From: Escherichia phage vB_EcoM_G2469
Strand: one strand, 5' to 3'
DNA length: 64,000 bases
Sequence record: MK327934.1
In this document: positions 9,201 to 44,735 of the stretch, one piece after another
Layout of the letters: every line of letters begins with the position of its first letter
How positions within the stretch are numbered: the first letter of the stretch is position 1
Made by a program: the position numbers and the translations under genes
The notes under the pieces: generated by a model
Seen by the model: the letters and a program-made list of their open reading frames with translations, nothing else
Told to the model about the DNA's origin: nothing
Database searches by the model: none

Positions 9201-9245
9201 ATTATTTCCTCATTAGTTAATTCATTCTATCATCCGTTTATAAAG

Positions 9246-9270
9246 CAAAAAAGGAACTCCGAAGAGTTCC
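9246..9270 (-). terminator. intrinsic terminator (minus strand)
   Basis: Plus aaaaaaggaactccgaagagttcc: stem GGAACUC/GAGUUCC with UUCG loop followed by a U-run on the minus strand. Confidence 0.6.
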
Positions 9271-14648: not shown

Positions 14649-16462
14649 TGGTGTTTAACCCTATGCATGATTTCTTTATTTTTACCGAGATTAAATCCGC
14701 GTTCGTTCGGATTTCCCAAATAACCGCATGTTCTTCTTATGGTGTTCATCTTTTTAGGATCAGTTTCTCCACAGATAGAACAAACAAATCCGTTTTCAGT
14801 AGGAGTCATTTCATGGGTACTTCCACATGTAAAACATTTATCTACTGGCATATTAACACCAAAATAATCTAAATGTTGTGCAGCATAATCCCAGACGGCC
14901 TCAAGTCCTTTTAAGTTATTTTTCATATCAGGAAGTTCAACATAAGAAATGTGACCACCTGTCGCAATGAAATGATATGGCGCTTCACGAGAAATCTTTT
15001 CAAACGGAGTAATATTTTCTTCTACTGAAACGTGGAAACTGTTAGTGTACCAGCCTTTATCGGTAACATCTTTTACACTTCCATATTTTTCTGTATCGAG
15101 TTTACAGAAGCGATAACAAAGGTTTTCAGCAGGAGTAGAATACAAACTAAAAGCAAAACCAGTTCTTTCAGACCACTGTTTAAGATGAGCATTCATTTTA
15201 GTTAAAATTTCTTGTCCAATATCACGACCGACAAGAATATTCAATTCGTGAATACCAATGTATCCTAAAGACACTGAACTTCTACCGTTTTTAAATAACT
15301 CAATTATGTCGTCATCAGGTTTAAGACGAACCCCGAATGCACCTTCTTGGTAAAGAATAGGAGCAACAGTTGCTTTAACACCCTTTAAAGAACTAATTCT
15401 ACACATCAAGGCTTCAAAACACAGATCCATTCGTTCATTAAACAATTCGATAAATTTCTGTTCATTGAACTGTGTTCCAATATAAGAATCTAATGCGATA
15501 CGAGGAAGATTCAGTGTTACAACACCAAGATTATTACGTCCATCAAGAATTTCATTACCGGTTGAATCTTTCCACACACTCAAAAAACTGCGGCAACCCA
15601 TTGGAGAAACAGGAATAGATGAGCCGGTGATAGCTTTATTGTTCTTAGCTGAAATAATATCAGGATACATTCTTTTGCTTGCACATTCTAACGCAAGTTG
15701 TTTAATATCATAGTTCGGATCATCTTTATAAAGATTAACACCTTCTTCAACAAACATAACAAGCTTAGGGAAAATAGGAGTTATCCCATCACGACCAAGA
15801 CCTTTAATACGATTTTTCAGAATTGCTTTCTGAATCATTCGTTCAGTCCAGTCAGTTCCCGTACCAAATGTAATTGTTACAAAAGGCGTTTGCCCGTTTG
15901 AACTAAAGAGAGTGTTTACTTCATATTCATAAGCTTGGAATGCATCGTATACATCTTTTTCTGTTTTAGATTGAGCATAATTCAACGCATCAGCGATTTG
16001 CCATTTTTCTGCATCCTCAATATGTTTTGCATAGGTGCGTTTAACATAAGGAGAAAGTACTTTATCTACATTAGCAAAAGTCGTTCCGCCGTATTGGTGG
16101 GAAGCAACTTGTGCAGTAATTTGTGCCATAATTGCAGTAGCAACACCAATCGATTTAGGCGTTTCAATTTGAGCATTGCCTAATTTAAATCCGTTCTCAA
16201 GCATCCCCTTTAAATCGACTAAACAGCAATTAGTAAATGGAAGAGCAGGGGAATAATCAATATCGTGGAAATGGATAATTCCGCTTTCATGTGCTTTCAT
16301 AATAAAAGACGGGACCATATTTTTGGCAATGTGTTTAGACACAATACCAGCCATAAGGTCCCGTTGAGTTGGAAAAACACGAGAATCTTTATTAGCATTC
16401 TCGTTTAAAAGGTCTTTATTAGTTTTATTAATCAGTCCTTCAATTTCTTTTTCAATTTTCAT
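14645..16462 (-). CDS. nrdD: anaerobic ribonucleoside-triphosphate reductase NrdD, uninterrupted (no intron)
   Basis: 605-aa continuous ORF ending ...RRTCGYLGNPNERGFNLGKNKEIMHRVKHQ (glycyl radical region). Confidence 0.9.
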   Translation of the reverse strand: MKIEKEIEGLINKTNKDLLNENANKDSRVFPTQRDLMAGIVSKHIAKNMVPSFIMKAHESGIIHFHDIDYSPALPFTNCCLVDLKGMLENGFKLGNAQIETPKSIGVATAIMAQITAQVASHQYGGTTFANVDKVLSPYVKRTYAKHIEDAEKWQIADALNYAQSKTEKDVYDAFQAYEYEVNTLFSSNGQTPFVTITFGTGTDWTERMIQKAILKNRIKGLGRDGITPIFPKLVMFVEEGVNLYKDDPNYDIKQLALECASKRMYPDIISAKNNKAITGSSIPVSPMGCRSFLSVWKDSTGNEILDGRNNLGVVTLNLPRIALDSYIGTQFNEQKFIELFNERMDLCFEALMCRISSLKGVKATVAPILYQEGAFGVRLKPDDDIIELFKNGRSSVSLGYIGIHELNILVGRDIGQEILTKMNAHLKQWSERTGFAFSLYSTPAENLCYRFCKLDTEKYGSVKDVTDKGWYTNSFHVSVEENITPFEKISREAPYHFIATGGHISYVELPDMKNNLKGLEAVWDYAAQHLDYFGVNMPVDKCFTCGSTHEMTPTENGFVCSICGETDPKKMNTIRRTCGYLGNPNERGFNLGKNKEIMHRVKHQ

Positions 16463-16932
16463 TTTAAACTCTTTCTAAGCTGCTTTTTGAATGAAGCTAT
16501 TAATTGTGTTTTAGTATCAGATTCATTATATTCAAATCCTCTTTGAAGCATCTCGGTCATCATTTCCTCTTTACCTAGTCTTGAGAACTCTTTAGTTTTG
16601 TCTGGAACAAAATTAGGATGGATATTATTAGCAGAATAATCTTGTTTCAAATAAGCAAGAAGAGCTTCAAGCCATTCGAGGTAGTCGACATCACGACCTT
16701 TAAGACCAGAACGGTTGAACTTATGCTTCATTTGGCCTTCTGCTGCGTTGCACAGAGAACAGAGTAACCCACGAACTCTACCGGCTTTTGGCCCGTTTAA
16801 TTCATGGTCGTGGTCAAGATGGTTACCTTGAACATCAGGGTCTAATTCACGGTGGCAAATAGGACACTTACCATTCTGTGCATCATAAAATTTTTGTTTT
16901 TCTTCTTTATATTTTGCGCCTGATAATAACAT
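16459..16932 (-). CDS. 49: endonuclease VII (Holliday junction resolvase) gp49
   Basis: 157 aa, MLLSGAKYKEEKQKFYDAQNGKCPICHRELDPDVQGNHLDHDHELNGPKAG..., matches T4 endo VII. Confidence 0.9.
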   Translation of the reverse strand: MLLSGAKYKEEKQKFYDAQNGKCPICHRELDPDVQGNHLDHDHELNGPKAGRVRGLLCSLCNAAEGQMKHKFNRSGLKGRDVDYLEWLEALLAYLKQDYSANNIHPNFVPDKTKEFSRLGKEEMMTEMLQRGFEYNESDTKTQLIASFKKQLRKSLK

Positions 16933-16967
16933 GATAAACCCTTACCTTAAATAGATAAGGGTATTTA

Positions 16968-17393
16968 TTAACTTAAACGTCTTTCTAAATATTCAATGTA
17001 TTCTGCGGCTGCTTGCATCAGGTTACCTTCATAGCCGTCGTTATTTTCTTGTCCGGCTAATTTAGCTAATGCATAAGAAATTCGTTCACCTTCGAATTCA
17101 CCAAGTTTACTACCTAGCACATCCGCAATATCAGCCGAATCAATTTCTTCGAGTTCATCTATTGAATGTGATTCCCAGAAGCACCAAAGAGAAGTATCAC
17201 GGTCATAGATGCAAAGTTTCTCACCAGTATTCAACATCACTTCAATAATGCCATGGTCGCCATAACCATCTTCGGTCGTAGTACCAATTACCTTGATGAT
17301 TGTATCTTTCTTTAATTCAGGAAACTTATCTTGGAGTTCTTCGTCATCTTTAACAATCTTGAACCACTTACCACGTGTGTCAGAAATATTCAT
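16968..17393 (-). CDS. hypothetical acidic protein (occupies the position of T4 pin)
   Basis: 141-aa ORF downstream of gene 49. Confidence 0.4.
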   Translation of the reverse strand: MNISDTRGKWFKIVKDDEELQDKFPELKKDTIIKVIGTTTEDGYGDHGIIEVMLNTGEKLCIYDRDTSLWCFWESHSIDELEEIDSADIADVLGSKLGEFEGERISYALAKLAGQENNDGYEGNLMQAAAEYIEYLERRLS

Positions 17394-26094: not shown

Positions 26095-26133
26095 GATAGG
26101 ACTACTATAACATAGTCCTATCAAGATGTAAAC
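26095..26133 (-). promoter_or_regulatory. early-promoter cassette: GTTTAC -35, -10 inside the palindrome GATAGGACT-N10-AGTCCTATC
   Basis: Plus gataggactactataacatagtcctatcaagatgtaaac; small ORFs start at 26074 downstream. Confidence 0.45.
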
Positions 26134-26627: not shown

Positions 26628-26930
26628 TTAGATAGATGTAGGCTCTAATTTTATTTTCATGAACTCGGCAAATTGTCTGGCAGTTTTTATGCCTTGTTCA
26701 TGACATTCAAATGCATCATCACAGGGACTATTTTTGTAATGCTTTGCCATATACTTATAGAATTTTTCAGAATTCTCGACATTTTGAATTTCAAACAAAG
26801 TATATACGTTTTTAATCCCTGATTCCATAAAGTTATCAAAATATGGGTCGATATATGCAGTACCAACGATAGGAGTTGTTGCTGCAAAAAACCCCAGCAT
26901 CGCCATGACAGCTATCGCTCTTAAGGCCAT
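26628..26930 (-). CDS. secreted protein, function unknown
   Basis: 100 aa with signal peptide MALRAIAVMAMLGFFAATTPIVGTA. Confidence 0.5.
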   Translation of the reverse strand: MALRAIAVMAMLGFFAATTPIVGTAYIDPYFDNFMESGIKNVYTLFEIQNVENSEKFYKYMAKHYKNSPCDDAFECHEQGIKTARQFAEFMKIKLEPTSI

Positions 26931-26942
26931 ATAGGCCTCCTG

Positions 26943-27155
26943 TTAATTTTGGCCAGTATTTATTTTTCGCCTTTGGACGGCCTTAACATCTGTGAGGTAT
27001 TTTTCCAGCTTGCGCTTGCGTGTATAATCAGCTTTAGAACCAGTTTGACGGATATCCTCGTTTAAATGAGAAATAGAATGTCCTAATTCTCTTCGGATTT
27101 CATCCAATTGGGTTACAGTAAGATTACGAAGTTGTCTTTCGTTTAATTGCTGCAT
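26943..27155 (-). CDS. hypothetical protein
   Basis: 70-aa ORF. Confidence 0.4.
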
Positions 27156-33986: not shown

Positions 33987-34268
33987 CTATTTTTCTGAAG
34001 CGCCTGAAATATATTTTTCAAGACGCTGTTTCATCAACGAGCCGTTCTTAGCGATTTCTTCCGGTTTATCGCACATACGCAACAATGCTTCAAGCTTAAC
34101 GATATCACTGGTGCGCTCAAATTTGCGAGTATCTATCTTACTAGCAAGTTCAGAAATACGTGCTAATAGACTTTCGGCTTCAACCAAAGCTGCACCTAGC
34201 TTAGTTGCAAATGTGTCAGTAGCTTCGTTAAGAATAGATTCTGATAAAAATTCACTATATGTTTTCAT
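33987..34268 (-). CDS. internal-protein-like small protein
   Basis: Start [11 protein letters not shown] (CTS-like); 93 aa. Confidence 0.45.
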
Positions 34269-34753
34269 ATATACGCTTTCCAAGTTCCTGTTTTAAATGT
34301 TGAGATTACGCGTTTCGCGCGATTAGGTGTCTGACGATACCATTTAGATTGGGCTAGATTTACTGCCGCTTCGTCCCAACGTTTCTGTTGAAGCATACGA
34401 AGAGAATTAGTAAAACCGGCGACGCCTGCTACACCCATTTGGAAGACCATATTGACCAATGCACAACGACGAACCGCATCTAAAGAATCATATACCGGTT
34501 TAAGTTTAGCATTACCCAAGATTCCGCGAACGGCTTTATCAACGTCTTCATTAAATAGCTTTTCAGCCTCATCAAGGGTAATTGTACCGTTGCATTTACG
34601 ACCGATCATTCTGTCAAGTTCAGCTTTAGCTACGGCTAAAGACGGGTTCTTTGTTACCAAATGGCCTATGCCAATCGTCCAAAAGCCTTCAGTGTCTTTG
34701 TATAAAGTCAGTCTAAGACCTTCGTCATTACGAAGCATTTCAAATATATTCAT
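34265..34753 (-). CDS. e: endolysin (T4 lysozyme)
   Basis: [32 protein letters not shown]..., matches T4 lysozyme. Confidence 0.95.
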
Positions 34754-34781
34754 AATACCTCCCACGTTTATAGGAGGTATT
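34754..34781 (-). promoter_or_regulatory. hairpin sequestering the gene e RBS (9-bp stem AATACCTCC/GGAGGTATT)
   Basis: Perfect inverted repeat immediately upstream of ATG 34751-34753; the downstream arm contains GGAGG; loop and upstream flank carry late-promoter-like TATAAA motifs. Confidence 0.55.
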
Positions 34782-34787
34782 TATTAC

Positions 34788-35246
34788 TTATAGGAGGGTA
34801 GTGAGCACCTTATATAATGATTTGCCCATTACATATTCCCATTGAGAAGGTTTAATTAAAGCGAATGCATCAAATTCAGGAATCTGTCGTCCGTCTGGGA
34901 ATGTATGATAGGAATTACAAACACTGTTTCTGAATTGCTCGTGCTCTACAGGGATGGTATATTGGAACAGATGAATATTCTTATTGTCTGAGTAATGATG
35001 TTCACCTAGGTCTTTCAGGAAGGCAGGGTCATATTGTGTAAACCCAGTTTCTTCTTCGCATTCACGAATAGCGGCTTCAATAGGAGATTCGCCAGGTTCG
35101 ACACGGCCTTTAGGAATATCCCACCGATGAGCTAAAGAACCTTTAGGACGAGAACCAGTTACACGGCCCATGAATAATTCTTTATCTTCGGTAAGGAAAA
35201 TAATACCAGCTGATAGTTCTTTCACTTTATTTTTCTTACTCATCAT
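34788..35246 (-). CDS. nudE: Nudix hydrolase NudE
   Basis: 152 aa, Nudix box GRVEPGESPIEAAIRECEEETG. Confidence 0.85.
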   Translation of the reverse strand: MMSKKNKVKELSAGIIFLTEDKELFMGRVTGSRPKGSLAHRWDIPKGRVEPGESPIEAAIRECEEETGFTQYDPAFLKDLGEHHYSDNKNIHLFQYTIPVEHEQFRNSVCNSYHTFPDGRQIPEFDAFALIKPSQWEYVMGKSLYKVLTTLL

Positions 35247-35487
35247 CTCGGTCCCATGATTTGGCCATTAATTCGGACATAAATTCTTCAATGCGCGTTT
35301 CTTTAGATGGACTTTCACTATTAGAGACCGCAAGTTTGTAATCTGCAATAGGACAGAACATATCAAGGTCCATATTAAGATCGTCTTTGATTTTTTCTTC
35401 TGACACATCTTTATCGTATGTGTACAGATAACTATCACATGATTCTGATTTAATGTAAATTGCTATACTCATCTCAAATTCCTGCAT
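35236..35487 (-). CDS. hypothetical acidic protein
   Basis: 83-aa ORF. Confidence 0.45.
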   Translation of the reverse strand: MQEFEMSIAIYIKSESCDSYLYTYDKDVSEEKIKDDLNMDLDMFCPIADYKLAVSNSESPSKETRIEEFMSELMAKSWDRDDE

Positions 35488-36942: not shown

Positions 36943-37012
36943 AATATTCTCCTCATGTTTTGGTAGGACTACTATAACATAGTCCTATAATTGTGTAAAC
37001 AGTTTTGCGAAA

Positions 37013-38256: not shown

Positions 38257-38295
38257 GATAGGACTACTATAACATAGCCCTATCTTGTTGTAAAC
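38257..38295 (-). promoter_or_regulatory. early-promoter cassette with palindrome around the -10
   Basis: Plus gataggactactataacatagccctatcttgttgtaaac. Confidence 0.4.
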
Positions 38296-41097: not shown

Positions 41098-41376
41098 TTT
41101 GTTTTCCTCTTGATTTGATAGGACTACTATAACATAAACTTACTTAGATGTAAATTATTTCAACGTCACCTTTAGCTGCTTTATAACCTTCAGCCCAAGA
41201 TACAACAGAGTTTTTATCTGAGGATTCAAATTCAGGCATTGGACTTTCACCAATATTCACACAGTATGTTTCTTCATTTTCATCGAACCAAATAATTAAA
41301 GTAGTCATTTTGTTTACTCCTCTGTAGTTGATAAGTCTATAGTATCACCATCCTTGGTGCTTGTACATCATTATTT

Positions 41377-44361: not shown

Positions 44362-44409
44362 TTGTTTTGATAGGACTACTATAACATATCCCTATAGGCT
44401 TGTATACCT

Positions 44410-44696: not shown

Positions 44697-44735
44697 GATA
44701 GGACTACTATAACATAGTCCTATCGTGTTGTAAAT
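44697..44735 (-). promoter_or_regulatory. early-promoter cassette with perfect palindrome GATAGGACT-N10-AGTCCTATC
   Basis: Plus gataggactactataacatagtcctatcgtgttgtaaat. Confidence 0.45.

Follow-up and report, generated by a model that had tools for sequence, protein, structure and literature searches.

The window, i.e. the whole 64,000-nt stretch of Escherichia phage vB_EcoM_G2469 DNA that was analysed (MK327934.1), comes from an RB69-like T-even phage (Mosigvirus), and its region 34200-35300 showed 98.6-98.9% DNA identity to RB69, JK36 and many relatives. Gene e is located at 34265-34753 on the minus strand and encodes a T4-type lysozyme (endolysin) of 162 aa, as identified from its open reading frame and a Pfam Phage_lysozyme match (E = 7.5e-14). 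Its start codon ATG occupies 34753-34751 (minus strand), and the protein begins with MNIFEML, the same as in T4. The upstream neighbour is nudE (e.1; 34788-35246, minus strand), which encodes a Nudix hydrolase (Pfam NUDIX, E = 4.5e-16). The order nudE then e is common to the window, T4 and RB69, with denV located downstream in RB69; judged from its sequence and from the same position behind nudE, gene e is the orthologue of T4 e. The gap between the two genes is 34 nt and reads on the mRNA as UAA (the nudE stop)-GUAAUAAAUACCUCCUAUAAACGUGGGAGGUAUU-AUG.

The e leader of RB69 is identical to that of the window at every base. In the RB69 RefSeq record (NC_004928; L056 10201-10674, equal to window 34265-34738), e begins at the second ATG and the product is given as 157 aa starting with MLRNDEG. 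The conserved MNIFEML start lies 5 codons upstream of this position and is preceded, 4 nt before, by GGAGG; by this comparison the RefSeq start of RB69 e is probably mis-annotated, 5 codons late.

An earlier note on this DNA had described two perfectly complementary 9-bp arms before the lysozyme gene, the downstream one being the ribosome-binding site (RBS) on the mRNA, and both points were borne out. AATACCTCC (34754-34762) and GGAGGTATT (34773-34781) show 100% complementarity across a spacer of 10 nt, and the Shine-Dalgarno sequence GGAGG (34762-34758, minus strand) is followed by 4 nt (UAUU) and then by AUG. On the e mRNA the layout across the hairpin is AAUACCUCC-UAUAAACGUG-GGAGGUAUU-AUG, the downstream arm being the reverse complement of 34754-34762. 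The RNA stem is longer than the 9-bp repeat: RNA folding gave 12 bp, two of them G-U, and a loop of 4 nt. In this 12-bp form (all on the minus strand) the 5' arm AAUACCUCCUAU covers 34770-34781, with the perfect 9-bp part at 34781-34773, the loop AAAC covers 34766-34769, and the 3' arm GUGGGAGGUAUU covers 34754-34765 and ends at the base before AUG. GGAGG lies inside the 3' arm, and on long transcripts it is paired there with a probability of about 1.

The stability of this hairpin is unusual. Its energy was -16.3 kcal/mol (z = -4.6), none of 200 dinucleotide-preserving shuffles folded equally well, and the 12-bp hairpin was the minimum-energy feature also in a 111-nt context. Among 89 crude gene models (positions -45 to +6), the e start region was the most stable, with -16.3 against a mean of -6.0 (sd 3.6). 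The frequency of 9-bp inverted repeats by itself was not significant in the 64-kb window in comparison with shuffles, 11 overlapping hits at 6 places being found for perfect repeats with a loop of 3-12 nt versus 4.65 +/- 2.4 in shuffled sequence. The repeat at e stands above chance because it is placed exactly over the RBS, ranks first among the 89 starts and is conserved across genera. A scan of 34500-35000 against Rfam, with E up to 10, gave no covariance-model match at the hairpin.

A duplicated CCTCCTATAA/CCUCCUAUAA had also been pointed out around the hairpin. The duplication is real (34797-34788 and 34777-34768, mRNA strand) but looks incidental, because the upstream copy consists of the last nudE codons and the stop (...ACC CTC CTA TAA) and is already changed in the nearest IMG/VR relative, which has CCATCCTATAA (L057). 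As a functional repeat it was rejected, the upstream copy being the coding end of nudE and not conserved.

The likeness to T4 gene e that the earlier note had drawn is right in substance, since the gene is orthologous, the stem core is the same and the mechanism has been published for T4; its promoter assignment has to be corrected. In T4, long early transcripts of e form an inhibitory structure and lysozyme synthesis is down 100-fold, while mRNAs initiated at either one of two late promoters, located immediately upstream, are without the 5' part of the structure and well translated (Uzan and Miller, PMC3014915, where the original hairpin work of McPheeters et al. 1986 is summarised). The same 2010 review states that the e leaders of close T4-type relatives are similar and that 'each' has a late promoter where the 5' strand is encoded; RB69 appears in neither of its exclusion lists (PMC3014915). 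The arrangement is in this sense already known, as the review covers T4 and its close relatives, and the e lock in the window opens no new question.

The T4 e leader (TATAAATACCTTCTATAAATACTTAGGAGGTATTATG / UAUAAAUACCUUCUAUAAAUACUUAGGAGGUAUU-AUG) has the same stem core as the window, ACCUUCUA/UAGGAGGU; the two share ACCU(C/U)CUA with UAGGAGGU, and also the GGAGGUAUU-AUG arm. By the same method, the stem is 12 bp and -16.3 kcal/mol in the window versus 11 bp and -13.3 kcal/mol in T4, and the loop is 4 nt versus 8 nt. In both leaders, the outer part of the upstream arm is formed by the 3' half of a late-promoter motif. However, T4 has two perfect TATAAATA motifs, one over the upstream arm and one in the loop, whereas the window has AATAAATA over the arm and TATAAACG in the loop.

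The best candidate for a late promoter of the gp55 type (-13 to -6) is AATAAATA at 34785-34778 on the minus strand, the last 4 nt of which are the outer 5' arm. It matches the consensus TATAAATA at 7 of 8 positions and has A at -13, a position that is commonly A or T in RB69 and related genomes (PMC1524935). This was the only motif at e whose position is conserved in all relatives examined. From the -13 to -6 rule we infer a start at about 34772-34771, just past the CCUCC core. The minus strand of the window contains three AATAAATA sites, and each lies 24-29 nt before a start codon, the genes being those of lysozyme, endonuclease VII (gene 49) and the antiholin rI. No enrichment of TATAAATA was found in the whole AT-rich window (9 sites versus 8.2 expected), and such counts alone are uninformative because the genome is AT-rich. 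No site at e is included among the 31 RB69 late promoters predicted in a published HMM-based list; we read this absence as a limit of that HMM search, and it was also counted against the candidate, as was the imperfect 7-of-8 match.

The earlier note had instead drawn attention to TATAAA-type, late-promoter-like motifs in the loop and the upstream flank. Motifs of this kind are present in both places, but neither is consensus: the loop motif TATAAACG (34765-34772, minus strand) matches at 6 of 8 positions, with mismatches at the last two, and the flank motif TATAAGTA (34785-34792, minus strand), which overlaps the nudE stop TAA (34790-34788), at 7 of 8. It would be conceivable that the lock works as described and that late transcripts come from one of these motifs, since both resemble TATAAATA, the position of TATAAACG matches that of the second T4 late promoter, which has a perfect TATAAATA there, and both T4 promoters are reported to be used (PMC3014915). 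We consider this improbable. A start 6 nt downstream of TATAAACG would fall at 34759 and leave only GG of the RBS, so that this degraded counterpart of the T4 loop motif lies too near the RBS for a usable mRNA and is probably non-functional; a transcript from TATAAGTA would start at about 34779-34778 and retain 9-10 bp of the stem. Neither motif is conserved beyond its own phage type, the loop motif not being conserved outside the T4 type and TATAAGTA occurring only in the RB69 type, whereas the nATAAATA motif over the arm is universal. The late-promoter role given to the loop and flank motifs is consequently better assigned to the conserved candidate AATAAATA.

The energy for forcing the RBS and AUG open was computed for each transcript start. 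The opening cost was 16.8 kcal/mol for the long (early read-through) transcript, 12.9 kcal/mol for the transcript from TATAAGTA, 3.5 kcal/mol for that from AATAAATA (start at 34772 or 34771), and 0.8 kcal/mol for that from the loop motif TATAAACG, in which the RBS is truncated. A late transcript starting at about 34772, as predicted, would lack the AAUACCUCC arm; a weak alternative pairing of the RBS with codons 3-4 would still be possible in it.

For the comparison among relatives, e loci were collected from IMG/VR in two scans, which gave 40 loci with 23 distinct leaders at about 60-100% lysozyme identity to the window. All 23 distinct leaders have [T/A/G]ATAAATA 28-35 nt before AUG, directly followed by C(C)UCC, and a hairpin (-7.5 to -16.6 kcal/mol) with the GGAG of the RBS in its downstream arm; the hairpin begins within or right behind the nATAAATA motif. 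The same plan was found in Dhakavirus IME341, Winklervirus Virsaitis27, Karamvirus VPA32, Gaprivervirus VR7, Jiaodavirus KP1079 and Muldoonvirus PS2, as well as in the unclassified Klebsiella phage Roth66, so that the named genera with the design, T4 and RB69 included, number eight. More distant e genes, namely those on Aeh1-size Aeromonas-type contigs, in rV5-like phages and at loci of 52-57% identity, were found without the design. Judging from these leaders, conservation of the design extends considerably further than the phages that the 2010 review had compared.

The CUCC core of the 5' arm is invariant or wobble-compatible in the 23 distinct leaders, and the four core pairs (CUCC/GGAG) together with the next two inner pairs show hardly any variation, because of which classical covariation is weak. 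MAFFT alone placed a 1-nt indel (ACCUCC versus ACUCC) of the 23 leaders wrongly, and its alignment was unfit for pair counting; pairs were therefore counted in a pseudo-alignment for which the U-A pair of CUCC/GGAG served as the anchor. Paired cells amounted to 76.6%, compared with 39-49% when the partner column was slid by 1-3, and changes on both sides were found in five pairs, including U-A to C-G inside the RBS of VR7-type leaders (ACCCC/GGGGU); in Serratia phage PS2, two inner pairs are changed on both sides (A-U to G-C and U-A to A-U). These counts support a selected pairing and fall short of proof, because the pseudo-alignment was built from the structure and the counts are biased towards it.

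More telling than the pair counts are four other features: the sliding of the stem, the pair change inside the RBS of VR7-type leaders together with the two-sided changes in PS2, the wobbles on the sense strand, and a CUCC that the promoter does not need. Where the outer pairs are lost (GUCCU for GUAUU before AUG), inner pairs are gained (UAUC/GAUA), and a helix of at least 7-8 bp over the RBS is retained in all leaders, even where the stem slides. The wobbles in the leaders are all G-U on the e-sense strand, where the opposite strand would have A-C mismatches, which points to a function at the RNA level. CUCC is absent behind the other TATAAATA sites in the window and is therefore not a promoter requirement.

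Against this background we find it hardly credible that RNA structure plays no role and that the repeat is either a palindrome formed by chance in AT-rich intergenic sequence or a protein-binding site at the DNA level. It is true that perfect 9-bp inverted repeats are expected several times per 64 kb (4.65 in shuffles), and that the invariant core pairs limit covariation. However, the e start region ranks as the most stable of 89, all the genera examined have retained the hairpin although protein identity is 60-88% and the loops vary, inward sliding rebuilds the stem where outer pairs are lost, and G-U wobbles are confined to the sense strand. Chance is excluded because the hairpin is conserved.

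In Karamvirus/Jiaodavirus-type leaders (e.g. L076, L139, L142) the outer stem is lost, and a small second hairpin (GUCC....GGAC) brackets the AUG; this small hairpin would remain in late transcripts.

The hairpin sits in the 34-nt gap behind nudE, and like an intrinsic (rho-independent) terminator it is a stable intergenic stem-loop right after a gene. It might serve mainly as an RNA end or processing element rather than as a translational lock, being a nudE terminator, a 3' stabiliser, or a shield of GGAG from RegB, the endoribonuclease that cuts GGAG in early mRNAs (PMC3014915) and whose gene regB is annotated in the RB69 record. This explanation is very improbable to us. The stem differs from a terminator in that it has no U-tract behind it (its tail is AUUAUGAAUAUA), by which a terminator is excluded, and the terminator scan did not call the hairpin. 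In addition, the 3' arm covers the e RBS in every case, even with the stem slid in other genera, and the homologous T4 structure blocks translation (PMC3014915). Protection from RegB could be an added effect of the translational lock rather than an alternative to it.

Upstream of e on the same strand, early-promoter-like sites were found as consensus matches only: TTTACA-17-TG-TATAGT at 36999-36971, with others further upstream, and a weaker site at 35459-35431. The site at 36971-36999 (minus strand), located in a repeated palindromic cassette, is the nearest strong one, and between it and e the minus strand contains only one weak terminator-like site (35763-35749). By its sequence and position it may be taken as the candidate source of early transcripts that would read through nudE into e.

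The palindromic cassette TAGGACTATGTTATAGTAGTCCTA occurs on the minus strand at 26097-26120, 36964-36987, 38259-38282, 41119-41142, 44371-44394 and 44699-44722, i.e. six copies with at most 3 mismatches versus 0 expected. In the scanned stretch, four of these copies coincide with promoter-like TTTACA-17-TG-TATAGT hits; for these four, the loop and 3' arm of an 8-bp inverted repeat contain the -10 element. Similar promoter-plus-stem-loop cassettes are known from other T4-type phages. Elsewhere in the window, at 9235-9270 (minus strand), TTGCTTTATAAACGGATGATAGAAT resembles a MotA-box middle promoter (TGCTTTA, 12-nt spacer, TAGAAT), with a 339-aa ORF 34 nt downstream.

Taken together, the e hairpin of the window is very probably the RB69-type orthologue of the translational lock of T4 gene e. 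The structure of the hairpin, its unusual stability, its position and conservation, and the conserved promoter motif are directly supported by the data above. The start site, the early read-through transcripts and the effect on translation are modelled on the T4 precedent, and a literature search for transcript-end, transcriptome or translation data on RB69-type phages found none that was relevant. On this model, transcripts from early or middle promoters would read through nudE into e and carry both arms of the hairpin; the 12-bp hairpin would bury GGAGG and end at AUG, so that 30S subunits could not bind and no early lysozyme would be made. Late in infection, RNA polymerase with gp55, the late sigma factor of the phage, would recognise AATAAATA (34785-34778), the 3' half of which is the outer upstream arm, and start transcription about 6 nt downstream, near 34772. 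With such a start the late mRNA would lack AAUACCUCC, the hairpin therefore could not form, and the mRNA would be translated.

Such a lock would prevent synthesis of a cell-wall-degrading enzyme from early read-through, premature lysis being otherwise a possible risk, and it is a classic case in which the timing of a gene is set by the choice of transcript start and not by a regulatory protein. For annotation, the analysis fixes the true start of e and names a likely late promoter, AATAAATA, missed by the published RB69 list. Somewhat tentatively, and leaning slightly to the doubtful side, we suggest that in RB69-type phages the lock may depend on the single non-consensus promoter AATAAATA, the loop promoter of T4 having decayed to the non-functional TATAAACG; more broadly, the interlocked design, in which the outer stem is formed by the promoter's 3' half and pairs with the spacer between RBS and AUG, may go back to a common ancestor of at least eight T4-like genera and may track changes in late-promoter specificity.

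A late promoter combined with a hairpin over the RBS is also known from T4 49, soc and I-TevI, and from I-TevII, I-TevIII, segB and Aeh1 mobE (PMC3014915, PMC2988022). These genes resemble the window e in that the long transcripts made early or at middle times are locked, and translation proceeds from late transcripts starting within the structure; however, the genes are different and the stems unrelated, so that the design is shared without homology. In the window, a second copy of the design was observed upstream of gene 49 (16462-16932), where AATAAATAC followed by a 10-bp hairpin over the RBS occupies 16933-16969 (minus strand). At the rI antiholin gene (26631-26930; Pfam Antiholin, E = 4.4e-24), we found no convincing hairpin over the RBS in the leader; the third AATAAATAC site lies 26 nt upstream of this gene, at 26957-26964 (minus strand).

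Related leaders were also seen at more remote e genes. The e leader of Cronobacter phage S13 (L089 540-600, with 100% identity over 1 kb) contains a very stable RBS hairpin of -22.7 kcal/mol with TCTAAATA in the upstream arm and loop, which replaces nATAAATA and resembles the CTAAATA late-promoter variant reported for Aeh1. Five distant e homologues on contigs of 9-35 kb (L119, L120, L121, L134 and L135, at about 555-600; 38-45% identity) have CATAAATA (in L134 and L135) or CTAAATA in an upstream arm that pairs with GAGG. The presence of CATAAATA or CTAAATA in these distant e hairpins could be due to convergence or to shared ancestry.
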